DNA from: Atractiella rhizophila
Taxonomy: Eukaryota
Direction of reading: 5' to 3'
DNA length: 47,607 nucleotides
Assembly: GCA_021432655.1 (NCBI GenBank)
Contig: MU271541.1
Span: forward strand, 1-47,607
Below the pieces are notes generated by a model that searched no databases, had not been told where the DNA came from, and saw only the letters and a program-made list of their open reading frames with translations. Shown piece after piece: positions 1 to 47,607 of the stretch (its first letter is position 1; every line of letters begins with the position of its first letter). A program made the position numbers and the translations under genes.

Positions 1-1522
1 TGGATGGAGGAAGTCGGAACACCTTTCACAGCGCGTGCCAGGTGTGGTTGCACAGGTCTGACGCGCGTGGGAACTCGAGGATTGTCACGCTCTACTCTCC
101 GGCGGGACAATAACAACACGGGCTTTCGTGCGGAACGAGCAAGGGTTACAAAAGCCAGGGGGGTTCGGACGGAAGACTCTGACGATCAAAAGCGCTGGGG
201 AGTGACTTCAGGAGTGCAAATATCCCCAAGGGTAAGAGTAGGAAGGGGCGAAATTGAAACGGAACCGTACGTCTTTCCTCGAAGAAGTGGGGGATGAATG
301 AGCTCTCTTCTTTTCGCATTTGATGATGGAGCGATATATTGATGCTCGAGATTATGTATTCAAGAGAGGACATCAGTGATGTCCTTGAGGATATCACACA
401 TTGTGCCAGCCAGCGCAACGATGAGCAGATGAAGCAAGCGAGCAGTCGTCGTGCGTTCTTCACACGCTCTGATTCCCCCCTCTTCCGCTTTTGCATACCC
501 ACTTTGGGTCACGCACTTCCACAGCACAGCAGGCTCACCACATGTATCCACAAGAGAAACTACATCTCGCTTTGTTGCATGACATCACCCCGCCGCTTCG
601 ACCATCCTGTACACTACCTTGCCCTGCCCGAGCTGAATCAAATGATTCTGCTCCACTAACACATAGCATGCACTTCAGGCGATCGAGGAGTCTCTTCCTT
701 TCATCCCGCATCTTTTGTAATCAGCTGTGCAGGTCATCGATTCTGTGTGTCTACATGACAGCTTTTTGAGGATGAGAGCTGGCTTCCTGTGATGTTCCGC
801 GACATTCGCAGAGTATGGGCAACGTGCTACATTAAACCTTTCTGCGATTAGTTCTGGCATCGGTCCAAAGGTAATTCGGCTTGAACGTTTCTTTGAGCCT
901 GTTACTTGATGCTCAAGGTAGACGGACAACTTAAACGGTCCGCTGGCGGTCTGCTTCCTTTGCACCTTCCTTTTTTATCGTATGAGTGTAGTGAAGGTGT
1001 TCAGTTCAACGTAGCAAAGTCTCGTCATGATCTTCCTCTCTAGAGGGAACGGGGATGGACAGGTCGGCATGGCCGGACCAAGCTGTTCTTCTGCATGCGG
1101 CCTTTTATGTGCAGCATAGCTTTGATTTACACTTCAGTTCCCTGCAAACTACCCTTCTGTTGTTTGACTGGTGGTCGCCCAGGACGGCGCTTTCAGCTGT
1201 GCCCTTGACTAAGTAGATTGCAGAGGTAGCATTGTAGGGAGCTAGATTCCTTGATAACTGCGGTAATGGTGTTCATTTATTGTTCTTTTGAACGGAAGTC
1301 TATTGTTTCTCTGGATCTCAATGCTTTTCTCAGGGTTTCAAGTCCTTGAACATGAAGGCATCCACTCATATGAACAGTGAACAAGGACATTAAACATCCC
1401 CTCATGACTACACTTCGCACACGAGATTGAATACATCTTTAAAGACCAGCTGTGTTCCTGTACGAGGACGTCCAATGACTTGGCTTTTAGATCACTTCGA
1501 GTAAAACACTTTACACCCCACA

Positions 1523-4500: not shown

Positions 4501-4594
4501 GCTAATTACGCCTTTTGATGTCGATGCCTATGAAGAACCGAAGGATAGGGAGGACAATAGGAGGATATCTCAGGATTGGGAAGTTGTAGGTTAG
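1523..4594 (+). CDS. UIM (ubiquitin-interacting motif) repeat, proline-rich protein (~1007 aa); putative ubiquitin/endocytic adaptor
   Basis: ORFs 1523-2281 and 2294-4594 are in the same frame. They are joined by a 48-nt GT..AG intron (2259-2306) that gives EMELAMALS|MQE. UIM-like motifs (LEEAIRRS, VLMQALQLS, MELAMALS), PPPPY, PxxP and DPF motifs are present, followed by a globular C-terminal region. Confidence 0.8.
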
Positions 4595-4918
4595 GCTCTC
4601 ATTACCTTGGCTTGGAACAGCATGAACGTTTGTACTCTTACGACAGTAATCCGTCTACAAACTTGATTTAGTGTATGAGCAGACCTTTGTGTGTATCATT
4701 ATGTGACCTTGAAAATGTTGATATCTTATATTTTCGTTGACCCCAGTCTTCCGCGATTTGTTGCACACTGCTTTGCAGAGGTGAACGAAGCAAGAGGACA
4801 AAGTTATCACACTGTTACGACGAAAAGAAGGAAGCACAAACGGTCCAGAAAAGAACATAATGATAATAAAACACAGGTTTCACAGAAGCTCTTTGCTTCT
4901 TCAACTCCAACGATTAAA

Positions 4919-7318: not shown

Positions 7319-7774
7319 TGGTTGGGCTTAGGAGATGGGACGTTGGAGTGGGTGCGAAGGAGCGAATGTAAAGAGTGGACCAGCCGGGGACCAGCCTGTT
7401 GAAGTGAAAGTCGAAGAAATGAGCCTGAAATGAGCCTCAAGTGATGCCCTCAATTGAACAGGACCGTCCTGCTTCGTCGTCGTGAGGATCTGAATCCATC
7501 GTTTCAACTTTAGTCACGTGTTCATTAAATCTTAATTTAATCCCAAAGTTATTCTTCAACCAACTCCGCTTTATAGTGAGTTCACGCGTCCCACCTTTGG
7601 TTCATCTGCCTCGCAGTATGTGGCTGCAAACAGCATGTAATATAGGTAACAGAGATACAATGCAAATGCGGATGGCAACAAGATTAACGCGGGAGCCACT
7701 TCCCCCGCAAGAAAGAAACCAACCCAACAAACCCTTACAATAACTTCAATGCTTAGGCGCTCATGCCAGCAAGC

Positions 7775-13930: not shown

Positions 13931-14922
13931 TCACCTGACTTCACCGATGCTCTTCCTTCTCAACCAATCTAGTACTCTATCAGCAAATTCTTCCGGTTGG
14001 TCAATAAAGACAGCATGTCCCGAATCCAGTGTTACAACCTCCAGGTCCGGGAAATGTGGCTTGAAAACATCCGTAACCGCCTCAGGGCTCTTTCGATGCT
14101 TGTCATGTTGCCCATGAACGAGGAGTGTAGGGAGGACATGATCCAGATTCTGTATCGGTACCGGGTCTGTTGATCCAGCCAGATACACTGATCGTACCTG
14201 GATTTATGTGAGCAGTCTGAAATCCAAAGAAATATCGGCGAACTGCAGGAGGAATGGAATATGCCGCTCCCAGAGCCTCCATCTTCGCCTTCCATCCGAG
14301 CTTTCCACAGTTGATATGATCGCTGTCTCCGTTGAGAACCAAGGACTCGATGAATCCTAGATATCCCTTTTGTTGCTCCACTGGGTCAAGTGATAATGCT
14401 CCTCCTGCGGTAGCCAAGATCTCTGGAGAGACGACGTGCATCGCTTGCATCCATGGAATACCAGCTATCTGGACAACTCCTGCGAGCGGAAAGGGTGGAG
14501 AGGAGGCGTAAAAGTGTGTGGGTATTACTCCAGCAATAGACCTAAAATTCCTTTGACATTCACGAGTGTTCTCGAAAAATTAAGCGAGGAACTGACCACG
14601 GCGCAAGGAAAACCTGGCAGCCTTCAGAGACCCCCACGGCCTCGCAAACCTTCACCAGGTCGCCACTCAGCCTCTTCCCATCGTACATGGAAGGATCGAC
14701 AGGTTTCCCCGACCGTCCATGGCCGCGCAAATCATACCTTACGAGATGGAAACCGCTCTGGACCCAGCGAGGATCCGAAAAAAGGGGATCGAAGATAGAC
14801 GTCGAACACCACAAACCGGGGATGAAGATCACGGTAGGCACGGTGGGAGAAGGCGCAGGTCCAACGTGGGAGAAGAAGATGGAAGTCGAGTCGACGGAAG
14901 CAATGAAGCCAGAGGATTCCAT
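13931..14922 (-). CDS. Alpha/beta-fold hydrolase
   Basis: VIFIPGLWCS, RYDLRGHGRSGKP, a nucleophile-elbow region FLAPWS (split by an intron), PTLLVHGQHD and SGHAVFIDQPEEF (catalytic His region). Confidence 0.88.
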
Positions 14923-15497
14923 CGCGGGCAGGATAGGCTTTGTTTTTCGTCTGCACAGCAACGTCTTGGCCTGGCTATGTTGGGTGGGGAAGCAAGGAGT
15001 GTTAGTTTAAGTACCCATCCAATGGATATGTGTTAGATGGCTACGGCGAGAAGCAAGCAACTACACACACACGGCTCACACGCACACGGTTCCCACACGC
15101 CGAGGTACTAGACTCAATTCAAAGTAACTCTTTCTGCACCTTCACAGCGATACCATCATGATCCTTTAGAAGTTAAGCTGACCTCGGTCCTTGTCTGCTT
15201 CTTCCCTCTACTTCCTAGCATACCTACTTGACGTGACACCCCACCTTAGGCCTCGGTCTGATTCAGCTGAAAAGTGGTAATGCTCCTAGGCATCGCAAAT
15301 CTTTCGGTTAGGTGTGACACAGCGGAGGTAAATTGGATAAGTGCATATACATTAAGCGTACATATGTAACTCAAACAGCGAGACATCGCTCGCTCCACTT
15401 TTGGAATGTTCGAAGTGGTAATTAAACTTAAGGCTCAAAAGTACACAGCCATCGACATAGGAATCGTTCAATCATGATCATGCATTCCTTGCGCGTA

Positions 15498-18539: not shown

Positions 18540-19954
18540 ATGGCATCTTTAGTGATTAGCGGTGTGAGCGAGTACAATATCAGCCTGTGTGCCAAATGTT
18601 TTCTCCAGCGTGCGTTCGCTGATGCTTCGCTGGGTAAAGTCATCCATTGCCCATCCTCAACATATCGGAGCACTTGACTCGTACACGGCTGCAGTCTAAT
18701 ACAGCTCGTCCTCAAAGTATGTCGCTCCTGTGTGATGGGATGTGAAGTTGAAGATTCTGATGCGTCCGTTTTACGTAGTTTTGGGAGCTTTGCTTGGGAC
18801 ACAGACGGGTCGCGATGTGGAGATAATGAACACTTTTGAGATTTCCTTCCTGAAAAATGAGGCTGGCAAGGCAGAGATCGATCATGGGTTTCTTGACACG
18901 AGGTCGAAACAATGTACGTTCTTTCTCCTTGCAACACGGGATGAACGTTGATATGTTCCGTCTGTGTTCGAAGTCAAACAAGTGTTTCCAAGTTTTATCC
19001 TCCTAGGATGGTATTCAGTTGGCTCAGAGCCTACAGCGGAAGACCAGGATGTGATGCGCCAGGTGTGCATCTCCAGCTCCTCCTATCTTCACGAACCGTT
19101 GACTGAATGTTCGAAGTTGGTAGAATATAACGAGTCCCCTCTCTTCTTCCAACTCTCTCCTCTCCAATTTTCAGGCAAAGACCTTCCTCTCACAATCTAC
19201 GAGCCGGTCGTGGAGATTCGAAACAAAGAGCCTCAACAATTCTTCATCCGAGTAGACTACAAGATCGTTTCCGGAGAAGCTGAACGCATAGCCGTGGATC
19301 ACACAGCGAAACCGGCCCAAAGTGCAACGTCGGAAAGTGCTCGTGCGTCTTCACCCCGCAGTGTGTCTCTTGTGATGCTGACAATGCTACTGTGTGATCT
19401 CCGGGGGCTGGGATGGAACAGTGGTGCAGAATCTAATGACACAGCGGAACGCTATAAAGATGCTTTATGACCGAGTGCAAGTGATCACTCAGTACCTAGA
19501 TGCTCTCACAGCAGGTTGGTTCTCCACCCTTCTGCCTCGTACCATTTCAACGCTTTCCATGCTGCTTCGTTCTTTTCCTCTGTCACACTTGCCGAGCTAT
19601 GCAGCCCATTCGATTCGATTTAACGCGTTGTTTTCTACAGGCAAAGCGCCAGTCGATCCCGAGACACTTCGTCAAATCTCCTCCCTCGTCTCCTCCCTCC
19701 CAGCAACCGACTCCCCCCTCTTCCGCGAAGAGTTTGACACCGAACACGAGGATGTCCTTCTCACATCTTACTTGGCAATGTTGACCAAGACCTTGAATGC
19801 GACGAACGAGCTGTTGGACAAGAACCTGTTCACGCAGCAGAGCGGAAAGGAGGGAGGAGGACCTGGTGGACACGGAGGGCACGGAGGAGGCGAGGGAAGA
19901 CCAGAGAGATGGGGAAGGAGGGGCAAGGGTGGGAGGGCTGACATGTTTTTGTGA
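18540..19954 (+). CDS. CSN6: COP9 signalosome subunit 6 (MPN domain)
   Basis: HPLPILNISEHLTR, VLGALLGTQTGRDVEIMNTFE, KQVFPSFILLGWYSVG, SGEAERIAVDH, QRNAIKMLYDRV and DVLLTSYLAMLTK. Multi-exon. Confidence 0.92.
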
Positions 19955-23741: not shown

Positions 23742-24131
23742 ATGCTTGCCCCAACAGGAGTCAATCAAACAATCATGCTCCTACAGAGTTATCCTGCAAC
23801 AGGAAGCAATAAACTTCCTCTGTTAAAGAATAGGTTTCAGAACAAGCCCTTAGCAAGGCAAGAAACAATGTAATGAGCATGGACAACAATGTTGACAATG
23901 ACAAAGAAGAAGAGTTTTATATGAATGCTTTGGAGCAATTAGAGGATAACAAATATAGTGCCTCAGTGAACATTGTTCATATCCTGGAGCTGACAATCAG
24001 CCAGAGCAATACAGTACAAACCTGGTCACAGCAACAACAATTACCTTCGAAGTCAGAGCCAGTGCATCGTAAACAGATGATTATCAACAGTATAGAGTGG
24101 ATATAGAAAAATAGTCCCTTTCGAAGTTTGG

Positions 24132-24378
24132 TCTTAGGGCTGATACTCTGTAAGGCTATCAACTAGGGAGGCTGCCAAGTAGAGTGGATATCCTAGGAGA
24201 ACTAATCTGGATATCCCACTCCATTGGCAGAAGTATGTATATACAAACAGCCACAAGTTCCAGAATGTTCCAGCATATTCTACTGTTAACTCTATTTGCT
24301 ACCTGCCTGATAGAACCTTCTAGGCCATTTGCCATATATTTCAGAATGTGAGTCATGCTCCATAAGTGAACCCTGACA
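24132..24378 (+). repeat. Probable LTR (family C)
   Basis: Termini TCTTAGGG...CCCTGACA. The first ~70 nt match 32436-32506, which begins TGTTAGGG. Confidence 0.5.
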
Positions 24379-24383
24379 TTCAG

Positions 24384-24560
24384 TGTGCGCTGGACCTGGT
24401 CCACAGCAGATGATGGTCAAATCACTGTCTATAATGCAATGAACTCCCTACCTGGTCCACAGCGGATGGTGGTCAAATGGCTGTGGAACCAGAACATGAC
24501 CCTAACCCTAAGTGTAGAATGGAAGGGGATCAAGTGAATGAGAGAGCTCATGCTCACACA
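24384..24560 (-). repeat. Copia 3' LTR (177 bp, with a 56-bp internal duplication/insertion)
   Basis: Matches 30740-30860 apart from the extra 56 nt; adjacent to the PPT. Confidence 0.95.
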
Positions 24561-24801
24561 CCCCCCCTCACTTGGTCCCCAAAGAAACCAGCACCAGAAA
24601 ACTCCAGAAGTAAAGTAGAACGATAGTGAAGTATCAATGAGAAGCAGATACCATATAATGAAAGTAAACGAAAGACTAATTCAACTGGATAGCAAAGAAG
24701 TATCAATACGGGAATTCAATGAGCTAGAATGGTAATGAAAGTCAACAAATCTGACAGCACAAAAGAACGTGAATATCTATGTATGATGTATATCAATCCG
24801 T

Positions 24802-27800
24802 TCAGGAATCCAGCAATCCTAAGTGAGAGCATAATTTCCAGTGCTGTAAGTGCAATATCCCCTTCGTCATCACATCCACTACCATCTCCTGTATCGGTAT
24901 CCACATCAGTATCACCTCACCGTTGTTTATCCTTTCACAGGTAAAATGATAATGAACATCGACATGTTTCGTCCTGTTGTGGTTAGAGGGATGTTTGGCC
25001 AGCATGAGCGCCCCTTGATTGTCGCCTTTGATTGTCGTCGACGCATTCTGAGGAAGTCTTAACTCAGTCAGCAACACTCGTAACCAAATTGCCTCCCCAC
25101 TGCCGATGATAGCACTATGTATTCTGCTTCTGTAGATGAGATCGCCACGGTCAGTTGCATCTTGGATATCCATGAAATCGCAGGCCTCCCTAATCTGAAA
25201 ACAACCCCTGAAATCGATCTTCTGGAGTCAATATCAGACGCATGGTCAAAGTCGGAAAACCTTCTATAGAAGTGGATCCTGTGCTGTCCCAAATCAGTCT
25301 AAAGTGTAAGGTCGCAGCAAGATATCTGAAAATCCTCTGCACACAGGCCCAATGTCGACGACCACGGTTGGAGTTGAATCGAGCCACCCGGTTTACTGCA
25401 AATAGTATGTCCTGCCTGGTATTAACTGTGGCATCAGTGCTCTAACTGCCTCCCTGTACGGTTTCTCCTGCATGTACTTACGCTCTTCGTTGGAGTTGGG
25501 TATTTTCTCGTTGATATCGCAGTGAGTCTTGACGTGATTGCAGTCAGTCATGCGAAACCGCTCAAGACATTTCCTGATATAGCTTTCCTGATCCAAAGTC
25601 ACTATGCTGTTAGTCTCGTCCCAAGCTATCTTCATCCCCAAAAAGTTACCAACGGAGGACGTGGTGATCTTGAATTGTGATGGAAGCAAATCAAATAACC
25701 TGTCAATCAATGTCCGGGACGATGCTGCTACCAATCTGTCATCCACATGAAGGCATATGATCGTTACCTCCTGCCCCTCCTTCTTGATGTACAACCCAAG
25801 ATCCGCGTTGGTCCTGATGTAGCCTTGTCGCATAAGAAAGGTGTGAAGTGTGTCATTCCAGCCTTTTCCTGCCTGTTGCAGTCTGTAAAGCGTCTTCCAT
25901 AATCTGAATACCTTCGATGGCGAATTGGGGTCCACAAATCCTTGCGGTTGCTGTAAGTATACTTCCTCTTTCAGATCCCCATGAAGAAACACATTGCTAA
26001 CATCAAATTGTGCCAACACCCATTGTTGTGATGCAGCAAGGGAAAGGATGGTGCGAACAGAGGACATACGAACAGTAGGAGCATACGGCTCCTTGAAATC
26101 TTGCCCCGGCACCTGTCTGTCACCTCTAGCAACAAGCCTCGCTTTATACTTAACGATATTTCCATCTAAGTCCCTCTTTATCAGCAAAACTCACTTACAT
26201 CCAATTGCACACTTTCCATGCGGTCAGTCAACCAACTCGTCTTTCCAGTCCCCATGGCACAAAGAGCCGCCATTTCCGCTTGGATCGCAATCCACCATTC
26301 ATCCACGTGTGGCCCTCCTAACGCTTGTTTAAACGTAGGTTCATCTAGATTCCCATTCCATCCTACCCCTGTCACAAATACTTCCCATCTACTTACACCA
26401 ATCCTATTATCTGTGAGAGCTGACTGGTTTGAAGCCCTTAGAGCTGCATTCATTTCCTTCACAGCAATTGATGGATTGAAAGTCTCGTAATCCCGGCTGG
26501 AAATGTGCGTTGAGGTGGAAAGCCGAAATGCGCTCAGAATGAGAGAGGGGTTTTACTGTATGTGCTTGAGGATGTTTCAGATCGGACCTATCCCTGTGAG
26601 CGCTGTCAGGTTGTGGGAGCCTACTGTCAAAGCCCGATAATCGACCCTAGGAATATTCCATCTGGTGTGTAAAGGCAGTGGGTAAGGATTAGGAGAATGA
26701 TTCGGAACCCTCTTTCGGGGAGTACGAGTCCGTGGGAGGGGTTCCTGCCCTTCATTACCAGCAGAAAGCTTCTCCTGCTCCCTGTTATCGTCGCACCTAT
26801 CCAGCTGCCCTGCAGGTAAGATGTGCATCCTTGTCGGAGAAGGCGATCTAGTGGGTGGTTCAGGGTTAAGTTGCACGTTCGTCATCGTCATGGGAGGCGG
26901 TATTATCACATCAGCATCTGGTACTCGAACAGGCATATTGTCAGCAAGATAGTCAAAATCTGAAGGCATGAACTCATTCAGTGACCAACTGGTCAATTTT
27001 ACCGTTTCCTGCTCCCCCCATGTCTCTGTAGAACTGATCTTCGAACCACTGCACCCTCCTTAGATTCCACAAAACGTCTCTGTCCCAGAATCCAGAACAA
27101 CCATCCCTTCTTTCCTTCCAGGTATCCAACAAAGTAACCCAGGATTCTCTGGGGATATGTATAACTACAAGGCATCCAAAAGTGTGGAGGTGTGATACAT
27201 CTGGTACTTTTCCAGTCCAGAATGATTCTGGACAATTCCACAATCCATGCGAGAATGTCAGAAGATGATTAAGAGTATAGACCGCGAACTGCACTGCTTT
27301 CTCCCAAAAAGATAAAGGTAAACCTGATTCAAACAAAATTGTTCATACAACATCAAACAAAGTATACCACCGTCTTTCAATAAATCCCATCTGATTATGA
27401 ATATAAGGAATTGAGGTCTCATGAGATAGACCATTTTGACAAATGAAAGATTTGAATTGTACAGATTGAAATTCTCCACCATTGTTGCTTCGGACAACCT
27501 TCACCTTGATATCATAGCGTCGCTCAGTCTCCAAAATCCAGTTCTTCAGAACCATCGTAGCCTCAGATTTGGTTCGAAGGGGAATCCACCATAGTCTGGC
27601 TATGGACTCCTCAATGGTCCCGAGACTGTATCACACACCGGAATGCATTGACGTGACCGGGGCAGGTCCCACAAATCATAGTCTATCCGTTCACTTTTCG
27701 CGAACGAAGTCGACTTGGTGACTACCCGACTCGGACGTGCTTTCGATTTTCTAGCCACGCATGATGTGCATGGCTTCAACTTAGTCGAATCACAATCAAA

Positions 27801-30663
27801 GCCCATCACACACTTTCCAGTACACAATTCCCTCCACCGTTTTGACCATATGTGGCCAAAAAGTGCGTGCCAGGTTTGAGCAGTCGTAGCTGTATACGCA
27901 GAGATAGGAATATGAGTTGTGTGCTCCTTCGCAGGTAAGAAAGGGGCACTTTGCCTCCAGTTCGATCTGACTTTCGCCAAATTTTGCCATCCGAAAGTGC
28001 AGGCCATTCTCGCGTCGGAAGAGGAGACGATCACGAGTGTTGGTGAACTTGATCCCTCGTTTCATCAAGTCGAGTTGCAATATTAAAGTCACACCAAGAC
28101 CCAGGACATAAAGGCCAGTCCCAAAGTCCGCCTGCATGATGTCGCGGCCCTGGGCGTCTTCGAGGAGCGGTCCTACACGCCCACTGTGAGTCGCGAAACC
28201 TCCGGTGCCAAACGCTCCTACAACGAATAGAGGAGGATGGAGTGGACAGAGATCTTTGAAAAGTTCAGTGGAGCTTGACATGGACACGGTGGCAGCAGAA
28301 TCGACATAGGATGGAAGCGAAACTATGTCGACTCCGGGGACATCACGGGAGAGGAATCGATGGGCCCCGTCTGGGATGATGGCATTGTAGATAGAGGTAT
28401 GCGAGATTGAGGCGGTCGATCGGGGTTGGGAAACATCGTCCAAAGAGACTGAATAAGGAGATTTCGCCGCTGCAACATTTGCTGCAACATCAATAGGAAG
28501 TCGTCTGTCCACAATGCAAGTCAGAAAACAAATGGAAGAAATGAGATGAGAAGGTAATTGGTAATGACGAAAATTGTCATAATATGATGAGAAATCGGTT
28601 GGATAAGAAACTGATAAAGGAGAAGAAGAAGGATTGGAACCATTTCTGGGGCAGGGCTGTTCAGAAGAAATACTAGAAGAAGAAGCAAAACATGATTGGG
28701 AATCATAGATGAAACAAAGACTGCAGATAGTCTTGGATTAGCAGTAGTAGGGGAAGGCGTCCACATGGGGTCATTGTGTGGATGATCAGGATCTTGAAGA
28801 AATTCGAAAGCGATATACTGTTCATCTGTGTACGTGGCTAAGGCCTCTTTGAATGATTTTTCTCCATCAACTGCATATGCAGCTTTTGAGAGAAAGTGTG
28901 GTTTGCTTTCTGGGAGTGGGTTCTCAGCAGTATATATCCTGGAATATAAAGAGGATGTTCCTCCAAGTGTCCGCTGGTAGAAGGTTGAGGACTCTCCCAT
29001 CTACGTTGCTCATACGCCGTTGAACGAAGGACGGCCAATATGCAACATCTCCTTCCGTAATGAGTTTCCCGTTCAAATCCCCATCAAACTTTCCGTCAGG
29101 TCCAGGATTGAGTTGGTCTCGATGAGAAGAAGAGACCCTAGGATTGACAAGGTAGGCTGTAGCAAAGTTCGTGGGATTCGCTATCAATTTGTTGAGGGCG
29201 TGCGAAAGAATGTCGGAGTTTTATCAGTACGGATCCTAATCCAAAGTCACGGAAAGCGTGCAAGTGGGCATGCTCTTGATCACTCTCTGGAATGTTGCAG
29301 GGATGTCCCTCCCAAAGACAATACACACATTGATCTTGTCCAACGACAAAATGACCAGATGGAGAAATTGATCCTGGCCAATTCTGAAGTCCTTCGTAGT
29401 CCCATGCCTGAGATCCGTAGGAATCACGGTCAGGGTGAGAAAAAACATGTCGAGAGAACCGAGGGTATCGTTCGAAAACAATTCCTCAGAGAGGAACTAG
29501 GACACTGTAAGTATCTGAGCGCCGGCGATCAATCGGGGGAAGATCGTGTTGGATAATCTTGGTCCGATTGGGTGAGAAAGGAGCATTGGTCCGGATGTTC
29601 CCAGTGGGCAGAGGGGCATCGTCGTATGAAAATACCCGTGGTCCCGTAGTCAGAGGGCGCTGGTACCTAGGAATGTTGGCATTGTACCGTCGGGAATTCA
29701 TGCATCTAGAGCGTCCTACAGGAGGGAATTGTCGGTCGAGCCCAGTCACAAAAGCGCTAACGATCTGTGCTCTTGAAAATGATGTAGACCCGGTCGACAT
29801 CTCGTCCTCCAGTTGGTGCCGCACTCCATGGGAGCGGGCTACCTTCTTCAGGCGCTCAGAGCACACTGCCAGGTTGTTACGAGGCACTTTCGATTCATCC
29901 AAGGCCACATCCCTCCATTCCGCTTCCAAGCATTGACAAAGATTAAGAAACAAACTGGTTCTGAGTCAACGTATTGGGAGTCTGCTGCCAAAAGGGCAGC
30001 ATAAGAGTTGTTCCACATCGTGATAAATTCCGCCATGGATTGGCATCCTGAGTTCACTTGAGATAGTTTAGCAAAGGTATCCCAGGCAGAGTGGGCAATG
30101 ATGGAGTGGGATATGCCATAAACGGAGCGAAGTTTCACAACAATCGATGTTGCAAGTTCCTCGTCCGGAGCAATTTCGTTCTGAGCCGAAATATCCACAT
30201 TCGCGCGCAGGACAGCAACGGCATTCACATTTCCAGCTTCCCATTCAATTACATTCATTTCTCAAGCTCTTCGCGGCTTCAGACGCATCGTCCCCAGGAT
30301 AAACGGGTTTCTGTCGTATGAATCCATTGTCTGGTTTCTGATCGAGGCAAGATCGATAAACTTTTAGACTCTTGAGTCCAAGAACAATCGCTTTCCACCA
30401 TCGTTCAAACCCGACCCTTGAAATGGAAGGTATGTTGTCGATGATGTGGTTGCCACCACCACTGTACAGAGGCATTTCCGGACCCTCCATGGGGACATAA
30501 GAAGTAGAAGAAGAAGGTACAGACAGAGTTAAAGGCTTGGTGACTGAAGAGATAGCTGGAGAAGGAAATCGTGTGGATGATGATTCGTCAGGTACATTGA
30601 GACTTCGCTGATTACTGATATGGGGAGGCGACCGTCTAATGGGGTGGGGTAACGTTGTGACAT
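24802..30663 (-). pseudogene. Copia gag-pol, broken by multiple frameshifts/stops
   Basis: Successive ORF fragments in different frames carry gag, PR, IN, RT and RH motifs. Confidence 0.9.
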
Positions 30664-30739
30664 CAGAAATTGGAGTGGAAAAGGAAAAAAAATTTGATTC
30701 TTGGAATTGATCCGGATTCCTATCCGGCTCTCGCTACCA

Positions 30740-30860
30740 TGTGTGCTGGACCTGGTCCACAGCGGATGGTGGTCAAATCGCTGTGGAACCAGAACGTGAC
30801 CCTAATCCTAAGTGTAGAATGGAAGGGGACTGAGTGAACGAGAGAGCTCATGCTCTCACA
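30740..30860 (-). repeat. Copia 5' LTR (121 bp)
   Basis: TG..CA termini, immediately followed on the minus strand by a PBS complementary to an initiator-tRNA-Met-type 3' end (...GCTACCA). Confidence 0.95.
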
Positions 30861-31599
30861 TTCAGAACCTAGAATCTATTAAAACACAAGACTTTTTAGT
30901 AGAACCCATTGACTTAAAGCAAGGAAATTGACGTACCCCATCCCGTCTGTACATACCATCATGTGACAAGCATACGCCAAAGACAGGCATGTGCAAGACA
31001 AACAACCTGTGGTGTCAGTGACACACTATCTCAACAAGAAGACCTGAATGTTTTTCTTGAGGCACAAGTGTGTCATGAACTTCGTCCCTCAGGCCCTCCA
31101 ACCTACTTATATGGGGCATAGCCCCTTGAACCCTACTATAACCCTTGTAAGGGTTCGAGGCCAGTATGAAACACATTTTTTGACCTCTGCAAATTAAAGT
31201 TTCCTTGCAGATTCAGAAGGGTGCAAGTATATGCAATAAGGTGGCATAATTTATTTCATTGTACCAGGTGAGGGAGGCACAAATGTTCAAAAGTGTGTTT
31301 TATGACTCATGCCAAGAACTGATGAATCTTAGAGCCTAGGATTAAAGTAGCTTGACATCAACTCAGAGCTAACATCTAAACAAAGGAAAGCAATGCAGCG
31401 TATGATAATTCACAACAGGAAAGCATTTACTTACAGCTCTCTATTCTGTGGAGATGCTAATTTCGTTATCACACAGGAGATAGTCATCCTATCTCTTTGC
31501 CTTCCTATAGAGCATTACTAGCAGGCAGAGAGTTTATAGAGCAAGTAACTCTGCATGGGCAGCTCTAGTTGTTATTATATTTTCCAGTGGAAAGCTACA

Positions 31600-32070: not shown

Positions 32071-32639
32071 CAAATAAATTAACCTGACTTACAAGTGGTA
32101 CACTGTCAGAGGGGCAAGAGGTCATAAATTTCTGATCTCTCATCAGCGTAATGGGAAGAATTTTGAACAAGAATGGAAGAGAGTGGTAGATTGTCGATAG
32201 AGGGAAAACAGAAATGCAACCTGTGTTTGTTGATAAGTTTGAGCAACCTTTCTAGTATTGTATCAATAGTGCATATCATTCTAGAGTCCTCTTTTTACTG
32301 GGTTCCCAAAGCAATAACAAACCGGATTATTAGGAGGGAACTGAAAACTGGAATATGTGTTGCAGTAACAAACAGAGTTGGAAGTTTAAAATTGCTTTCC
32401 AGTGTCCACAATGCCAGCAGTGATTGTAGCCTTGCTGTTAGGGCTGACATGCTGTAAGGCTATCAAGTAAGGGGCTACCACTTAGACTGGATATCCTAAG
32501 GGAACCAGAACGTAAGGCAAACGGAATAAATAGATGATCCACCAATCTCGAACAATCTTGGCTTAAGATCGTTCTCCCTCTTGCTTCTTGGATCTTATGC
32601 CATTCCATAAGATGACATATGTATATCGAGTAGTCACCA

Positions 32640-33850
32640 TACAAAACACTAGAAGATTTTCTGATGTCACTTTATGGACTGGTTGATGCTGGACGAAGAG
32701 GAGTCCTCACCCATGGTCTGATCAACAGGAAGAGACAGTTCTTCCCATTCCACTGAACAGACGAAGGATGACTCTGAGCCAGCAACTCAGAGACATGAAA
32801 TTTTACCCTCAGGATAGCAACTTGATCTGGCCTTGCGGATCATTTGACAGATCTAGTCAAGGATGTTGTGATATACCCAGTCATTTTCCTAAAGGTAGCT
32901 TGGTTAACATAAGAGCTGACAACAGATTGCTCCTTGTGTTCCTTTGGGACCTTTTCAAAATACACCTTGTACTGTGCTAACTTCAGATGCATTGAGCAGG
33001 GTAGTAGAATAATATACATCCTTGTCAATGAACGGTATTAAGTCGAAGGTAGAAAGCCTCCAATCTTTCTCTGGTACCCCAACAAAAGTCAGGATGTGTT
33101 CCTTTAAAAGAGAAGATACTCTCACCTACTTTTCCTTCACCTTCACTATGAGAAGGTGTGCACCATATTTAATCTGGACGTTTTCAGGCATATCTGCAAA
33201 TTACAATCTCAGCTAAATAACAAGCTGATTTGGGCTTCATCAATCAGCTGGTCTTCCTCATTAGTGATGACCTCCAGGACCTGAGGTACAATCAATATTA
33301 CCTCCTCTCTTTACCCACGATAAATGATGAACAACTCACTTTGACTGTGGCAGACATATTCATCTTCTTTGTCCTACCCTTTTTGCTCTTCTTCTTGCCC
33401 TTTCTAACATCTTTCCCTCCATCTTTGTCAGATACTTCTAACAAACTCAGCTCATCTGCAGGGGACCTTTAGGTGGACCTTCCATGACAAGGTCTTCATC
33501 TTTGTTGAAGGAAGGATGGTTTGATTTGCCCTCTTTCTCCATCTCGAAGGTGATGTGGTTGGATTCGTTCGACAACCTCTGTTTCTTCAACATCCTATTC
33601 TCGCTCAATTCAATCATTCTTTTCTTCTCCCTTGCTTTGTGAAACGGAACATTATCTGAGTCTGAACTTAGAGGTGTTAGAGATTTAGAAGCTAAAAACT
33701 ACCATCTATTTCCACTCCTTCAATCCAGAGGGAAAGGGTCTATCCTAATTGGAACATGCAGCTAGAATTAGAAACAACCTGACAGGGCAGGCTGGTAGTG
33801 AACTCACATGAGTAAACATGCTCGTATCCTTACTCTGACGAGTGGTTCAA
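32640..33850 (-). pseudogene. Decayed intron-containing ORF, possibly a transposon accessory gene
   Basis: Lys/Glu-rich coding-like stretches with GTGAGT..CAG intron signals and many stops. No family recognised. Confidence 0.3.
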
Positions 33851-36600: not shown

Positions 36601-36934
36601 TATCTTCTCCGTAAGGTCACCACCACTACATCTTGATATATATATCCATATGTAAAGGCACTACTATAAACTGTAACATATGTTTCTTGAAACACGTAAG
36701 ATAACTAGATCAGGAAAGCAATAAAGGGAATACTTAGAAATAAGATATACTGAGCAGTACTAGTGAGAAAGGATAATAAGGCGAAAATGGGGACAGTGCG
36801 GACCGGCGAAATGTATAAGGTTTGCTGAGCGGCGATTTGTATGAGATAGGGAAAGCGGGGGACAGTGCAGGCATGAGCAAAGCGGTGATAGGTAAGCATA
36901 TGATCCTATGACGTGGTAAAGTAGGTCACGTGAC

Positions 36935-37457
36935 TGTCAGGGTTCGAGCCCCTGATATACCTTAAGTACAGACCAAGATGGGTGTAAACACCCATCATTA
37001 GCTCTTTTAGTTCAGTTGGTTAGCTGTTGGTCTGTAGCCATTCTGACAGAATGATGGGTTACGTGGGTCGTTGGTTCGAATCCCAGTCCCAGCGGCTTAC
37101 AGCTCCCTGGCCCCCGGTCCAGGAGTGGTGACCCTGTAGGGGGGTTACGGAGCTGGGGGGTCAGCTACTTAAGTTAACTTTGTTCTGTTGTATTCTGTTG
37201 TATTCTGTTGTGTGGCTACTTGTCCTGTGCAGGTTGTAAGTCTAGAGAAGAGTAAGACCCAAAAGGGGCTGTCCTAGCAGCCATAGGCTGTGAGTCAGAC
37301 CAGAAAGCACACAGACACAAAGATACAAAGAACAAGGGGGTGATGTCAGGGTTCGAGCCCCTGATATACCTTAAGTACAGACCAAGATGGGTGTAAACAC
37401 CCATCATTAGCTCTTTTAGTTCAGTTGGTTAGTTGTTGGTCTGTAGCCATTCTGACA
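36935..37457 (+). mobile_element. TRIM (miniature non-autonomous LTR retrotransposon) with tRNA-derived sequence
   Basis: 114-bp LTRs at 36935-37048 and 37344-37457 (1 mismatch; TGTCAG..CTGACA ends). TSD GTGAC at 36930-36934 and 37458-37462. 295-bp non-coding interior; purine-rich tract AAAGAACAAGGGGG just before the 3' LTR. Confidence 0.95.
37001..37090 (+). promoter_or_regulatory. tRNA-Tyr(GTA)-like Pol III internal promoter (A box + B box); not a functional tRNA
   Basis: A box TAGTTCAGTTGG 37008-37019, CTGTAG 37032-37037, B box GGTTCGAATCC 37073-37083. The acceptor stem does not pair. Confidence 0.75.
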
Positions 37458-37679
37458 GTGACTTCAGATGGTACATTTCGGTAATGCGTAGGGACAAGCC
37501 TGACAGGAAGCCGCTTACAGCTGTATTAAAAAATCCATCCCTCGGCATCAATTGCATATTCTATGAATATAGTGTAAGTCAAAAGGAAAAGATATCATCT
37601 TGTGACTTTGAGGAAGAAAAAAAAAGAGTGGTAAAAGCTAGAAAAACTACCAGGGTACAAGCATTACTTACTAATAAAG

Positions 37680-38300
37680 AGAGACAGTAGACACTGGAGC
37701 CATTGCTCCTATGATATCTCATCATTTGTTTCAAAATGATGATCAGAAACATTGCATTCATCATCCATTCCAAAAGAAAAGAATCTATATATTCCTGCTT
37801 AAACAACCTGCCAAGCCAATAGTTATCAGAAATGTATTTTATATCCCAACGTTAAAATCGAATCTCCTCTCACTCTTCTCTTTACAGCAATATACAATTG
37901 TTATTCTTGAGACTTTATAAAGTTCTTAAGAAAAGGAAAGATTTGGTTCACAGTAATAATGGAGAACAAGGTCGCCACTTATGGAAGGACCAACACTGAA
38001 TTCTTTAATCCTACACAAATAGAAGCCAAGGCTCAGTTACTTCAGATTCAAAAACAACATTGCGTTTTCCCATATTATTTTCCAGCAAAGGTTTATAAGT
38101 TCTTAAGCTAGGTCATATCAATCTGAAGGAAGGCCCTTTAGGTATTAGAAGAGAAGTCTGATATTGGATGAGATTTGTAGCTGACTATTCCTGATACCAT
38201 GGATTTACCTCTCCTGAAAGAAAAGTAAAGCATATCAAGATTTTTAAGACTTTAACACTATGGCAGATATGTAGACCAGACAGGCTTTGAGGTATTATGG
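37680..38300 (+). pseudogene. Copia protease/integrase-region remnant
   Basis: IRNVFYIPTLKSNLLSL motif typical of Copia pol; heavily degraded. Confidence 0.6.
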
Positions 38301-40009: not shown

Positions 40010-40103
40010 CATACTCAACGATGGGATGGTGCAGAAGAGTGGTTCCGAAAACGATTCATACTCCACGATGGGATGGTGTATGAGAGTGGTTCCGAAAACG
40101 ATT
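40010..40103. repeat. 47-bp tandem duplication
   Basis: 40010-40056 and 40057-40103 are near-identical (CATACTC..GGTTCCGAAAACGATT). Confidence 0.9.
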
Positions 40104-41509
40104 AACTTGCAATGAAATCTATTTGTCTGTTCAGTAGATTCTCTATGGTAGCAATGCAGAAGAAAACAAATGGAAGGACAGAAAGAATAACACATCTTCA
40201 CCCAGATATGGTCTCAACTATGCTCATTTTGAGAACTATTGCTACTTACGCCAACTGCCACATCACCTGTCAAATCCAACTTGACCTTACCCAACTATGG
40301 ACTTTACCTAGCACTTCCCTCACAATCTTAGCCTTCTCTTTTTCCGTTGACCACACTGAATTGTATGCACAGCCAATTGACAACCATGGTCTTCTTATAC
40401 CTATGGAGAGTGAGGGTGCATGTGAAGAGCTGGCAGAGGTAGTCTCCAACTTTTGTGCCAGTTTGAAAGGAGTAAGAGGAGGAACTGCTGTGGGAAGGTG
40501 AATGTGGTACCAAAGAGCAACTTGAAGGAGCTACTCCATCTGATTGCCATGGTTGATAAGGTTGGCATAGGGATGAATGTGTGAGCGAAGGTAGCTTTCA
40601 TCCTCCCCAAGTATCGTTCACCGCTAAATGTCCAAGTTGCCTATGAAGGTCTAAGCTAGTCTTAATAGTCTACAATGTGGAGGAGAAAGTGAAGAATATT
40701 GGACAGGCTAGAAGGTAATCACATGTGTACTGGTTGTAGAGCACTTGGTACTTTACCACCTAGTTTTTTAGTCCTTCCCTCAACTCTGACAGAGATCTTG
40801 CTTCTCCATTAAATACTGGACACACAGGAGGATTATTGTCCTCCAGTCCAAGAAATGTTGATAGTAAGGCTGCTTTAAATGATCTCAAAGTATAAAAGGT
40901 CCGGTAAAAATAACAAAGTTGGCAAAATCCTCTGTAGTAGCTTTCGAACGGTCATCATGAAGGTGGTGAAAGTGCTGTCCAACAGAGGATGGGATCGTCT
41001 TCATTGCGTTTTCGGTGTCCTTTCCATCAACACCCAATCCTCCTTCGAAATCACATAATCTTCCTTATTATCCTTATCAAACTCCTTCAAGACTCCAAAT
41101 ATGAGCAAGTTCTTAGTCATGTTCTCAATGGCCAGATGCAAAAAGTCCAATATGAAGGACCAGGGAAAGATAATTCTTGTTGTGGCAAGACTCAGTAGGG
41201 TAAAGATTGAGATCATAGACAATCCCAGGCCAGCAGTCGTATTTTCTATATTTGAAGAGCTGGAATCAATCGGAATAGATTTCTGGAGCGATATATCTTG
41301 GGCCTTCAAAATGTTTGTATTTCTGTTTCTCCCCATCAATCACAACATATCTGCTCTTGAGCCTTTAATAATGCTTGTCATCAAGGAGATTAGATGGCTT
41401 CCCTTTCTGATTGTGGTGTTTGCTTCAAAAGGACATTTGTTCACCCATCTCCTCATTGCCCATTGCTGTCCATAGTTGAGGAATGAGAGGGATATACTTC
41501 CACACCTTC

Positions 41510-41724
41510 TGTCAGGCTTGCTCCTACACATTACCGAAATGCACCATCTAAAGGCACGTGACCACTTTACCATGTCAGTGGATCACATGCTTACCTATCG
41601 CCACTTTGCTCATGCCCGCACTGTCCCCCGCTTTCTCCTTTCTCACACAAATCGCCATTACCGTTTATGGCAGTGCCTTTGCATATGTATATATACATCG
41701 AGATGGAGTGGTGGTGACCTTAGA
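41510..41724. repeat. LTR family B, copy 2 (215 bp, internally deleted, inverted relative to copy 1)
   Basis: TGTCAGG...CCTTAGA; lacks the TRIM and ~150 bp of copy 1. Confidence 0.85.
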
Positions 41725-43031
41725 GTATTCACTTAGATTTACCTCCACTACAGGTTTAGTCTTCTCATGCCATACTATTCTCTTAGGTTTACCTCCACTA
41801 AAGATGCATCGCCCATTGGCGACCGCACATAGTGTTTGCCCTAACACCTTCCTTGTATTTGTGTTGTTGTCGTAGCGAGGTTTGTTGTAATAAGGGCAGT
41901 GTGCATGAGACTCATAAAGAGGACAATTGAAATTAACACGAGTATATGCAGCATGCAAACTTTTTTACTCTGAGTTCAGCAAGCTTTCTAAGTTTTCGGA
42001 CTAGCTTAGGTAGGCTTGTAATCTCCAGCTTGTCTGATCATCCACATCTTGCTCATCAAAATATTCTTCTGTTGATGGCCCATTTTCAGGTGGTGCATCA
42101 AACTAGGCCGCTTGGCTAATCTCTGTGGCTTCTTCTGCTTCATCCCATCCATCATCAACTTTTAATGGCCAATGAGTGGCACATGGTCAACATCCATGCT
42201 TTCAAGACCACCTCCTGTATTGGAGCAATCGAAATCATGGCTGAATCAATGAGAGAAAATGTACATTAGAAATAAAGCAATGAAATTCCATAACCAAAAC
42301 TCTTCCCATTGTATCCAAGGAGGCAACACACTTGAGCTAGGTCAAACTATTCCTGCTCATCCATGGACTGCCTCACTCTTGCTCTATCTCTTCTGTTCTA
42401 CTTCACTACTCTCTTGATCTCATCCATCTTCCACTTTGAACTCTTGAACCTGCTAAACTTATGTGCGTCAACATCCTGCATATGTCGAATGATGTGCTTT
42501 TGAGTGAGTGTATGACGACAACCACATGGACAGGTTTCGGAATGCAGGCATGCTTGATCATGTCCTGAGTATTGCCTCTTGGATTTCTTCAGAGCGGTAG
42601 GTGGGCAATGAGAAGTTGGTTCAGGTGCAGGATGAGGTGCCATAGGTGCCATGAGGTTGTTCGTTTGATCACTGAGCTGAACAATTGATGCCCGATGCCC
42701 TATGATGTGTGGTGCACCCAAGTCCATTCATTCTTCTTCACCTGCATTAGCTCCTACAAGGTTATATTTTTCAATGCACATCAATTCCAGTTGCAAACCA
42801 CTATAGCACTAGCCGCTTATTTCATTTCCACCCTACTGCTTTGCATGGAGAAACATGCTGTTTGAAACTGGATTGATTCCCATAGTCTCTACCATGATAC
42901 AGATTTTTCCTGTTTTTCAATCCAGTCACTTTCCAGTAAGTTGCTGTTTTATTCCAGTTCATAATGGCAACTATTACCGTTTCCAACTTGCTTTACATCG
43001 AAGCTTTTCTTGTAAAAAGGGTTCCACAGCA

Positions 43032-45212: not shown

Positions 45213-47607
45213 TCAACCCACAGTCTTCTGCTCCGTCAACTCCTTCCTCTGCTCTCTCAACCTCTCCCGCCTCTCGTTTCTCCTCCTCTTGCTCTCCTTT
45301 ACTCCAAACCCGTTCTGGAATAGCGATGGTACCTCTTCGATGGCAAGACCACAGGCTTCAGGGAAGAAGAAGTAGATGAAGACGTAACCGATCGTACAAA
45401 CCGCGGCGTATAGACCAAACGCACCAGAAGGAGTAATCGAGTGCAAGAGCGACAAGAAAGTTGAGCTGACCAAAATGTTTGGCCCCCAATTGAACAGTGT
45501 AATGTTGGAAGCTGCGAATGCCCTAACTCTGAGGGGGAAGAACTCCGACGTTGTCCAAGGGACATTACCTACACAAGGTCATATGAAACTTATACAACAA
45601 AAAGAAGACGGAGACAACATACCGAGACCAGTAGCGTAGCCAGCGACATAGATCAGCATGCTCGCAAGTACCAAATTGCTCGCCCATCCTGAGCCTTGAC
45701 CATTCGAAGTAATTGGATTTCCGCTGTCATCCTGGGGGACGTGATCGAACGCAATTGCAGCGATTACCTTTCATGGTTTCAAAGCAACCGTTAGACCTTT
45801 CCATACCGAAGAGGAGAAAAGCGAGGGTAGCCAAGCGTACAAGGGCAACAGGCATTATCCAAGCAGACCAGAGCAGAATCCGTCGTCTTCCAATACGATC
45901 GACAAGGAGCAGTGAAACATTTGTGAACACAAAGTTTGTTGCGGAAACAGTGAGCGAGATGAGTAGCGGGTTAGAGGTGAAGCCAACTGTCTGGAAGATG
46001 GTCGCCGAGTCTGCAGAGTTGCTCGTATGAGGGTCGCACTGGGGTAATCTAAGGAATCCACTCACAGTACATCTGTGGCGCGGGTTATCAATAACATGTT
46101 CCTCGCTTGTCAGAAGAGGCTTACCAGAGTATTGAACCCACAAAACTGCTGAAAAGCCATAGAACCACACGCTGAAACGAGCGCTCGCAGATTAGGGCCC
46201 TGGTGATTCAACACGTCCTTCAGTTTCGATATCTTAATGCAAGAGACAGAAAGTGGGAAGAAGAACCTTAGTATACATCTCCTTACAGAGAGCCTTCGTT
46301 GAAGTCCACCAACTGCCTTGACCTCCATCTGGGCTAGAGAGGATGACCATTCGCAACAGCTCAATCTTATGGTCCAGTTGCTCGTCGGTTGCGAACGGAA
46401 AAGTCTTCTTGATCACGGCGCGTGCGTCTGAGTCTCGCCCCTTTCGGATGAGATGACGGGGTGTTTCAGGTATCAGGGGAAGCAGGAAGAAAAGGACAAT
46501 CGCAGGGATGGCTGATCTCATAATGAGATGTGCTGACGGACACAGAGGGAAAAAGGCAAACCTCCGAGAGCTACCATGTACCTCCATCCCTAGATTGCCA
46601 TTTCAGCATGTTGCACTGGACAAGAGGAGGAAACGAGATAAAACCTTGTGCACGTGATAGAAAGCCTCGTCAATTGCATACGCAATGAGCTGGCCACCAG
46701 TGATACACAGTACATCTAATTAAAACTGATCAGCAGAGGGTTTCACGTCCACCATATTTCAAAATACGAACCGACTACAACCAAACGACCTCTATATCGT
46801 TGTGGTGCTACTTCCCCAATGAACAGAGGGACGACCATTGACGCCAGGCCCACTCCAAATCTAGTCCAGAATTGAGAGGTTAGATTGAGCATGCTGGAAT
46901 AAAGACAGTAGACGGACCCAACGATCAAACGGCCGATAACCATCTGCCGAAAATTCAGACTCATTGAGCTGGTGCTGGAAGGAGCAAGAACGAAGTATAC
47001 GTACCTGGGCAAAGGAGTACGAAACTGCCTGCAAGACTGATCCTAGAACAAATCTGTATAGGAATATACGTCAGCAAGTGAGCTGAAGGGACCTCAGACA
47101 GGACAACAAACACAACAGTTGAGAGATACATCACGCTCTTCCTTCCCCATTTGTCCGCGAGAAATCCAGCAAGAAGAGCAAATATGAATGCACCAGCGCT
47201 ATATGCCATCCACAATAGATTAACAAGTGTTCATGAAGGAGAAAGTGCATAATTGGGAAGACGAACCTAGTGATTGAGGTCAACAGTTCTTTCTGGCCGC
47301 TTGTCAATTCGTGGGAAGTTCGAAGGTCAAGTCCAACGGTGATAAATACACCATTCATCACACCAGTATCGTCTATCAAGAGCGAGTTTCAGGCAATTAC
47401 TGTCTGGGCATGGAGGACATACAACCAAACAACAATCCATCAGCTGCATTTGACTTTAATCAAACTTTGACGCTGGGAGAAAAGTAAAGGACTAACCTGC
47501 CGATACAGCGAAACAGACGAGCCAGATCCACTTTGAAGGCTGAGTAGCCTCGATGGAATCGTGATAAAACGCAGCATCGAGGTCGCTTGAAATTTTTTCG
47601 CCACCAG
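45213..47607 (-). CDS. MFS sugar porter, myo-inositol transporter (ITR)-like; 5' end outside the window
   Basis: DTGV, LADKWGRK, GRLIVG.GVGLASMVVPLFIGEVAPQRYRGRLV, PETPRHL, FQQFCGFNTL, VDRIGRR, GNVPW..SEFFPLRVR and PEACGLAIEEV. Confidence 0.92.

Follow-up and report, generated by a model that had tools for sequence, protein, structure and literature searches.

How would a 523-bp element that encodes no protein be transcribed, primed and inserted anew? This question was raised by a short repeat at positions 36935-37457 of a 47,607-nt stretch of the genome of Atractiella rhizophila (GenBank assembly GCA_021432655.1, contig MU271541.1, positions 1 to 47,607, forward strand; hereafter the window). 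The original prediction described it as a young terminal-repeat retrotransposon in miniature (TRIM) in which the junction between long terminal repeat (LTR) and interior builds a tRNA-Tyr-like promoter for RNA polymerase III (Pol III). Our analysis identified a recently inserted TRIM that, judged by its sequence, seems to be an unusual Helenus-like TRIM with a small-RNA-type promoter and, in addition, a probable self-priming site. The element is known from a single copy, within the window, and all structural statements rest on this copy. Its parts and the repeat into which it inserted were located as follows.

36930-36934, no strand, 5′ copy of the target-site duplication, GTGAC
36935-37048, plus strand, 5′ LTR, 114 bp, ends TGTCAG...CTGACA
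37183-37211, plus strand, tandem TTCTGTTGTA x2.9, paired in the predicted fold with the purine-rich stretch that precedes the polypurine tract
37327-37340 (with TGA to 37343), plus strand, polypurine tract AAAGAACAAGGGGG; the 3′ LTR follows directly after TGA
37344-37457, plus strand, 3′ LTR, holding a run of four T at 37414-37417, where a Pol III transcript is proposed to end
37458-37462, no strand, 3′ copy of the target-site duplication, GTGAC
36612-36934, minus strand, left part of the high-copy host repeat that received the insertion (right part 37458-37506)
41509-41722, plus strand, inverted paralogous copy of the host repeat, with an unoccupied site at approximately 41544-41563

The element consisted of a 295-bp non-coding interior between two 114-bp direct LTRs, which were identical at 113 of 114 positions (the one mismatch being C37024 vs. 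T37433). Its plus strand held no ATG-initiated open reading frame (ORF) of at least 30 amino acids, and the three antisense ones measured 30, 63, and 42 amino acids. The features that define a TRIM were thus all found: short direct LTRs with TG..CA ends, a non-coding interior, a target-site duplication, a primer-binding site, and a polypurine tract. The LTR pair with its single difference, the polypurine tract, the lack of a sense ORF, and the GTGAC duplication on both sides had been foreseen correctly, and the predicted young age agreed with the near-identity of the LTRs and the intact duplication.

An empty counterpart of the insertion site, predicted at 41544-41563, was confirmed in the inverted copy of the host repeat, which ran uninterrupted across the insertion point (GTGCC vs. 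GTGAC at the filled site). The same empty state was present in sequencing run X1, in which four contigs skipped exactly 528 bases (36929 to 37458 in three, 36930 to 37459 in one). Since the skipped 528 bases equal the element plus one duplication, they demonstrated a real insertion of the 523-bp TRIM. The element is a recently inserted TRIM, placed by an integrase that makes 5-bp duplications.

The host repeat reached a summed contig depth in X1 of up to 161,510 vs. 310-511 for the unique 3′ flank. It started with (C)TGTCAGGCTTG, an LTR-like start, and both copies ended in ...GGTGGTGACCTTA, with no CA end. The two copies were inverted and about 4 kb apart, the left one having approximately 150 extra bp of internal repeats; the intervening region held a tandemly duplicated 47-bp unit (91% identity) and a repeat of 28 bp at 50-bp spacing (40010-40103, 41726-41803).

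The original prediction had proposed a BLAST search for further copies. Within the window, blastn of the element returned no second copy, only matches of 11-28 nt. A metagenome scan with a 19-nt string spanning the LTR end and primer site retrieved 11 loci, each matching 19-20 nt with the rest of the element absent; these are chance matches. A retrozyme was also considered, and no hammerhead was matched by Rfam (E ≤ 10) in 36700-37700.

A possible mode of priming was suggested by the nucleotides directly following the 5′ LTR, for which three features are relevant.

36977-36996, plus strand, hairpin 2, GATGGGTG-TAAA-CACCCATC, overlapping the self-primer
36990-36999, plus strand, proposed self-primer ACCCATCATT and proposed start of the repeated (R) region, exact complement of 37050-37059, with a CA initiator at 36989/36990
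37050-37059, plus strand, primer-binding site AATGATGGGT, 1 nt past the LTR, complementary to 36990-36999

A primer-binding site after the LTR had been part of the original prediction. A site was indeed present at 37050-37059; the partner to which it was complementary was the LTR itself and no tRNA. The complementarity extended over 10 of 10 nucleotides, and of 5000 shuffles, 5 gave a match of at least 10 nt between an LTR and the following 25 nt, as did 1 of the 1260 window positions sampled (p ~0.001). The primer duplex was retained in the minimum-energy and centroid folds of both 36991-37100 (110 nt; z -2.84, with 1 of 200 shuffles as stable) and 36990-37417 (428 nt; z -4.42, with 0 of 100 shuffles as stable). 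A tRNA 3′ end or half-tRNA as primer was rejected after comparison by hand, which gave no combination of T33 and purine 37, no plausible acceptor, and no TGG-type fit. The string AATGATGGG was not found in the Helenus supplement (DataS1.fa), in which line wrapping at 70 nt limits a string search. Self-priming is predicted for Tf1/sushi, the Tcn1 clade, and TAR copia elements (PMC6317226). The primer site is probably of this Tf1/Tcn1 self-priming type and not of the tRNA type, and self-priming by the element appears reasonably probable.

The complementarity would have another origin if the element were an inactive leftover, a one-off product of a dead family. It would then be a side effect of the threefold occurrence of the GATGGGTG motif, GATGGGT being found at 36977 and 37053 and its complement at 36989-36996. 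Against this stands its placement, exactly at the location required of a primer site.

The bearing of the element on RNA polymerase III was examined through the tRNA-like strings on both sides of the LTR end.

36937-36955, plus strand, hairpin 1, TCAGGG-TTCGAGC-CCCTGA, perfect and T-arm-like, with a perfect B-box match at 36941-36951
37008-37019, plus strand, A-box-like TAGTTCAGTTGG, positions 8-19 counted from G37001
37012-37023, plus strand, D-loop 12-mer TCAGTTGGTTAG, the same 12-mer as in the Helenus-1_AmAr and Helenus-4_SaGl LTRs in the available part of the Helenus supplement
37032-37037, plus strand, CTGTAG, an anticodon-loop-like string at positions 32-37 from G37001, with no supporting stem pairs around it
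37063-37100, plus strand, 12-bp hairpin with a B box in its loop, GGTCGTT plus GGTTCGAATCC at 37066-37083

The strict B-box pattern GGTTCGANNCC had 4 matches in the 47.6-kb window vs. a mean of 0.24 in 100 shuffles, none of which reached 4, and three of the four were inside the element (at 36941, 37073, and 37350). The starts of the A box and the next B box were 65 nt apart, with the LTR end and primer site between them and a distance of 24 nt from the LTR end to the B box; an A box followed by a B box arises only from the 5′ LTR plus interior. In these respects the original prediction was accurate: the A-box start at position 8, CTGTAG at positions 32-37, the perfect B box preceded by GGTCGTT, and the location of the LTR end and primer site between the boxes were all exactly as described, so that a complete A plus B promoter requires the 5′ LTR together with the interior. 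ARAGORN run at 90% of its threshold called two tRNA-like folds in 1001 nt around the element, and gave any call in 1 of 200 mononucleotide shuffles and in 2 of 45 other 1001-nt window chunks. Intact boxes with decayed stems are the pattern of Helenus (Kojima, 2024; PMC10886601), and the sequence of the element is very probably tRNA-derived.

The likeness to tRNA-Tyr, by contrast with the box positions, did not hold. No tRNA was matched by the Rfam model at E ≤ 10 on 1001 nt or 121 nt, nor by ARAGORN at its normal threshold, with or without introns. Pairing by hand in the Tyr register from G37001 gave 3 of 7 pairs in the acceptor stem, 1-2 of 5 in the anticodon stem, and 3 of 5 in the T stem, with the D stem (canonical register) unpaired. 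The relaxed ARAGORN call at 37015-37094 used another register, placed the LTR end (CTGACAG) in the anticodon loop, and was assigned Val(GAC). The tRNA-like stretch is not a tRNA, as far as its sequence and predicted pairing go, and the identity "Tyr" is not assignable. That the LTR-interior junction forms a functional tRNA-Tyr gene with an intron, for which CTGTAG at positions 32-37 and GGTCGTT before the B box could be cited, can practically be dismissed in view of the absence of any gene in the intron-permitting ARAGORN run, the lack of an Rfam match, the unpaired acceptor, D, and anticodon stems, and the different register and anticodon of the relaxed call. The LTR-LTR junction as a permuted tRNA was likewise rejected (ARAGORN 0 at normal threshold, a relaxed "Ser(cga)" call only).

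The fourth B-box match in the window, at 31146-31162, read TGTAAGGGTTCGAGGCC and resembled the start of the TRIM LTR, TGTCAGGGTTCGAGCCCC. It was followed on the minus strand by AGGGTTATAG, recalling the half-tRNA-iMet site ggttatgag of fungal Copia and Helenus elements, and may represent the end of another LTR element.

Copy number and presence in RNA libraries were assessed from public sequencing runs. Parts of the element were present in 20 rows of the run search, which drew on 15 studies, among them root and soil metatranscriptomes; 11 of these rows were RNA libraries. Four of 24 listed runs were aligned to the element, all as Logan contigs (X1, DNA; X3; X4 and X5, RNA). Summed depth of the interior in X1 was 481-564 vs. 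310-511 for the unique flank, corresponding to an interior that is about single-copy. Over 361 nt of the interior, run X3, labelled as another organism than X1, differed by 2 letters and 1 gap. X4 held contigs at 37033-37260 and 37231-37375, with a short third one inside, and X5 one contig at 37043-37340, in both cases with 0-3 other letters. The LTR core was not covered by the X3, X4, and X5 contigs. All that these contigs show is that RNA libraries contain the element, including both of its LTR-interior junctions. The contig ends (37020/37033/37043 and 37340/37375/37380) were rejected as RNA ends, as they differ from one another and those of X3 fit assembly breaks at the repeated LTR.

These data also bear on the element as an inactive leftover, whose RNA would be read-through, DNA carry-over, or a copy from a relative. 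The about single-copy interior and the ability of RNA libraries to hold DNA are in line with it. It is opposed by the 1/114 difference between the LTRs and the intact duplication, by 99% identity of the interior in two RNA studies and across runs that carry two organism labels, and by the 11 RNA rows from several studies. Altogether, we consider such a leftover improbable.

Among the sequence differences, all four aligned runs read G at 37202 and 37218, where the window has A, and X3 and X4 had one extra G in the G run near 37335. Because of these differences, the window copy is not the exact sequence of any aligned run. In one X1 contig (depth 156), the end of the LTR (37046) was fused in opposite orientation to the end of the host repeat (37506), which may represent another LTR copy against another host-repeat copy.

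Two further features concern the start and end of a transcript.

36955-36960, plus strand, TATA-like ATATAC, 30-35 nt upstream of 36990, of putative function
37005-37008, plus strand, run of four T (T4) in the 5′ LTR; with 37414-37417, the sole T4 runs on the plus strand of the element

An RNA start near A36990, 18 nt upstream of the A box, is inferred from the position of these motifs. The geometry around 36990 is as compatible with initiation by RNA polymerase II (Pol II) as with Pol III initiation of the tRNA type. Since the tRNA genes of S. pombe and A. thaliana are likewise preceded by TATA motifs, at -34 to -28 (PMC11547032), the TATA-like motif is uninformative on the polymerase. T4 runs, which like hairpin 1 did not figure in the original prediction, were positioned directly before the A box in each LTR, not after the B box; their absence from 37009-37413 is little informative, given an expectation for the interior of only ~1.1. 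Transcription by Pol III would explain why the boxes alone are intact, their A-to-B order, their 65-nt spacing, the geometry of the start, and the T4 run placed to end the RNA in the 3′ LTR. The two polymerases are nearly evenly balanced: use of the split promoter by Pol III is a tentative assignment, somewhat short of even, and transcription by Pol II a possibility only slightly below it.

The explanation we favour is that of a recent TRIM mobilised in trans, self-primed and built on decayed tRNA sequence, with a Pol III promoter split by the LTR boundary; taken as a whole, it falls only slightly on the doubtful side of an even balance. RNA synthesis would start near A36990, 30-35 nt past ATATAC and 18 nt before the A box. 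The first 10 nt of the RNA (ACCCAUCAUU) would fold back onto AAUGAUGGGU, 1 nt past the LTR, and the folded-back 5′ end would prime the minus strand through the unique 5′ (U5) region, as in Tf1/sushi and Tcn1-type elements, making a host tRNA primer unneeded. The strong-stop product would be transferred via a short R of ~19 nt, and the polypurine tract would prime the plus strand. In the decayed tRNA-derived sequence only the promoter motifs would have stayed intact, the A box in U5 and the B box past the LTR end, creating a type-2 Pol III promoter only where the 5′ LTR meets the interior, and the T4 run at 37414-37417 in the 3′ LTR would terminate the RNA. An integrase making 5-bp duplications would act in trans, with the proteins coming from an autonomous partner not seen here, for which a self-priming element of the Tf1/Tcn1 kind is the most likely candidate.

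Several observations weigh against this explanation. The T4 run at 37005-37008 is ~16-19 nt after the proposed start, and Pol III must read through it. The loose A-box pattern, taken alone, was at chance level (4 matches vs. 2.38, with 24 of 100 shuffles reaching 4), and the tRNA searches by Rfam and ARAGORN described above were negative. Each LTR has its internal B box upstream of its A box, an order that no tRNA layout explains. The boxes and the primer pair are known from a single copy. No autonomous partner was found in the window, where the sole autonomous element is a Copia with other LTR ends. The contigs show no RNA ends, strand, or level, and the RNA libraries from which they derive can hold DNA. 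Finally, the LTR bins of X1 ranged from 840 to 10,376, which for both LTRs summed corresponds to ~15-25 copy-equivalents, a rough value since contig depths were summed, and in a 263-nt X1 contig an LTR with 5 letter differences and 1 gap was flanked left and right by unrelated sequence. The LTR excess fits either solo LTRs or an LTR shared with a long autonomous element that needs Pol II.

A rival explanation is an ordinary Pol II-driven TRIM ("TRIMp2" of Kojima), self-primed or not, in which a capped RNA would start at ~36990 via the TATA-like motif and the boxes would be a relic of an old tRNA or SINE (short interspersed nuclear element) capture, or serve another role such as RNA structure, without recruiting Pol III. 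ATATAC precedes 36990 by 30-35 nt, Pol II is the polymerase of most TRIMs (PMC10886601), and the T4 run just past the proposed start would hamper Pol III. An LTR depth far above that of the interior, with the LTR joined to other sequence elsewhere, is as expected if a long partner transcribed by Pol II has the same LTR, and the covariance model finds no tRNA. This alternative leaves unexplained, however, the survival of a perfect B box and of the D-loop string, in the right order and spacing, amid decay. Its TATA argument is weakened by the tRNA-gene motifs at -34 to -28 cited above, and no poly(A) signal was identified, although no systematic search was made. We regard an ordinary Pol II-driven TRIM as possible and as a weaker candidate than a TRIM with a split Pol III promoter. 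By analogy, in the available part of the Helenus supplement a short T run, mostly T4, comes after the boxes in each LTR, and this layout seems to entail reading through a T run in the 5′ LTR. In its most specific form, in which the TRIM would be both Pol III-transcribed and self-primed, with a start at A36990, read-through of a weak T4, transcription factor IIIC (TFIIIC) on the A and B boxes, and an R of ~19 nt, the Pol III explanation is unlikely to hold in every part.

Helenus elements are TRIMs with tRNA-derived sequence in their LTRs (Kojima, 2024; PMC10886601). In fungi they were found in Pucciniales and three Agaricomycetes, with 5-bp duplications, primer sites mostly complementary to tRNA anticodon loops, and mobilisation seemingly by Copia; families comprise tens to hundreds of copies, and complementarity between the tRNA-like LTR sequence and the primer site was sought there and not found (PMC10886601). 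In the available part of the supplement, consensus LTRs contain a tRNA-like part with boxes A and B, then a T run, then the LTR end, and internal parts begin with ggttatgagccc, gatttacagtct, tggtagc..., cgattaacagt, or cattatcagt (PMC10886601). Like Helenus (e.g., Helenus-1_AmAr of Amylostereum areolatum and Helenus-9_PSt), the element is a basidiomycete TRIM with a 5-bp duplication. The LTR lengths are alike (112-116 bp in Helenus-9_PSt and Helenus-1_HemVas, 114 bp in the element), as are the box motifs without a working cloverleaf and the T4 run. The D-loop 12-mer TCAGTTGGTTAG recurs unchanged in the LTR of Helenus-1_AmAr, likewise from a basidiomycete, and the end of the polypurine tract (GGGGGTG) resembles the ...aagggggtg of Helenus internal parts in the available supplement. 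With regard to tRNA-derived LTR sequence, by which Helenus is recognised, the LTR of the element has a D-arm/A-box-like string and a T-arm-like hairpin, and no tRNA by Rfam or by ARAGORN at normal threshold. The differences concern layout, priming, and abundance: whereas the Helenus LTRs seen there have the order A, B, T run, that of the element has B (36941), T4 (37005), and A (37008), with the next B (37073) in the interior; the Helenus primer site matches a tRNA anticodon loop or 3′ end, whereas that of the element matches its own LTR; and Helenus families have tens to hundreds of copies, whereas the interior of the element is about single-copy.

Membership of a described Helenus family already in Repbase could be argued from the basidiomycete host, the 5-bp duplication, the D-loop string of Helenus-1_AmAr, and the GGGGGTG tract ending. 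Four strings of the element (9 to 18 nt) had 0 occurrences in DataS1.fa, a file with lines wrapping at 70 nt, and the Helenus LTRs inspected in the available part of the supplement hold box A, box B, and T run inside the LTR, with internal parts that start with a tRNA-type site. Such membership is very improbable. The possibility of a new family, raised in the original prediction, is in line with these limited motif checks, which matched no described Helenus; the element is of the same general kind as Helenus and therefore not wholly new. The background invoked there, namely Cassandra TRIMs carrying 5S-derived sequence and tRNA-bearing Helenus TRIMs, agrees with the literature (PMC10886601).

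An LTR-complementary primer site is shared with Tf1/sushi and the Tcn1-clade Ty3/gypsy elements, and with TAR Ty1/copia elements; SM-Tcn1 also makes a 5-bp duplication, as does the element. The name Tcn1 comes from a basidiomycete. These relatives are autonomous, coding, several kb long, and Pol II-driven, without tRNA-like boxes, whereas the element is small and non-coding. The complementary 10 nt of the element may form the 5′ end of its RNA, with which the CA at 36989/36990, the placement of the TATA-like motif (-35 to -30), and that of the A box (+19) agree.

Cassandra and Ajax, the 5S-bearing TRIMs ("TRIMp3"), resemble the element as TRIMs with the Pol III promoter of a small-RNA gene (PMC10886601), but their 5S promoter (box A, intermediate element [IE], box C) is wholly within the LTR, and no 5S match was found in the element (Rfam, E ≤ 10). 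The tRNA-derived SINEs (SINE2) resemble it in having a decayed tRNA head with only the A and B boxes preserved, and in the mobilisation in trans of a short non-coding RNA; they lack the LTRs, primer site, and polypurine tract of the element, and it is non-LTR elements that copy them at the target. In the parts available of the literature on Helenus, TRIMp3, self-priming, and Pol III LTR elements, no TRIM with a split tRNA promoter and no self-primed TRIMp3 was reported.

Elsewhere in the window, a degraded Ty1/copia element occupied 24381-30860 on the minus strand, with LTRs at ~30740-30860 and 24381-24560, the latter with an internal duplication of ~56 bp. It contained pieces of RVT_2, gag_pre-integrase, and SH3_retrovirus in several frames, and its primer site TGGTAGCGAGAG matched the tRNA-iMet 3′-end type of Helenus-5_PGr-I. 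As a partner of the TRIM it was rejected on account of its LTR ends (TGTGAG...CACACA), this tRNA-iMet 3′-end site, and its CTGAA duplication. The string TGTCAGGGTTC at 24368-24378 was only flank of this Copia, and 24040-24400 and 32340-32720, considered as an LTR pair, did not pair.

The cellular genes were in short exons and included alpha/beta-hydrolase pieces at 13934-15006 and a sugar transporter at 45216-47230 (minus strand). An ORF at 19382-19951 (gene region 18952-19951) resembled COP9-signalosome subunit 6 (CSN6/MPN-type, MitMem_reg domain). It had seven matches, six of them from Basidiomycota at 32-38% identity (Cronartium, Cryptococcus twice, Kwoniella, Cryptotrichosporon, and Cystobasidium) and the seventh at 43%. 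On the sequence alone, the host was placed among the basidiomycete fungi. The long ORFs at 2285-4591 (769 amino acids) and 4922-6466 (515 amino acids) gave no Pfam match.

Cassandra, Helenus, and Ajax can be regarded as the counterpart of SINEs in the LTR world, and among TRIMs with small-RNA promoters Pol III transcription has been shown only for Cassandra (PMC10886601). If the split-promoter explanation is true, a promoter divided by the LTR boundary would let only full elements fire. Solo and 3′ LTRs would be promoter-dead, because the LTR end and primer site are positioned where a tRNA intron would be, and the element could do without a host tRNA primer and without a Pol II promoter. Self-priming would replace the tRNA primer and link SINE-like transcription to Tf1-type replication, suggesting the origin of an LTR element from a SINE-like, tRNA-derived RNA that gained a self-priming site and a polypurine tract, both recognised by a reverse transcriptase of the Tf1/Tcn1 type. 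Its compact 428-nt RNA would be suitable for testing both steps. If transcription is instead driven by Pol II, the element would be a low-copy, self-primed TRIM with a tRNA relic, of value for repeat annotation and for avoiding false tRNA calls.

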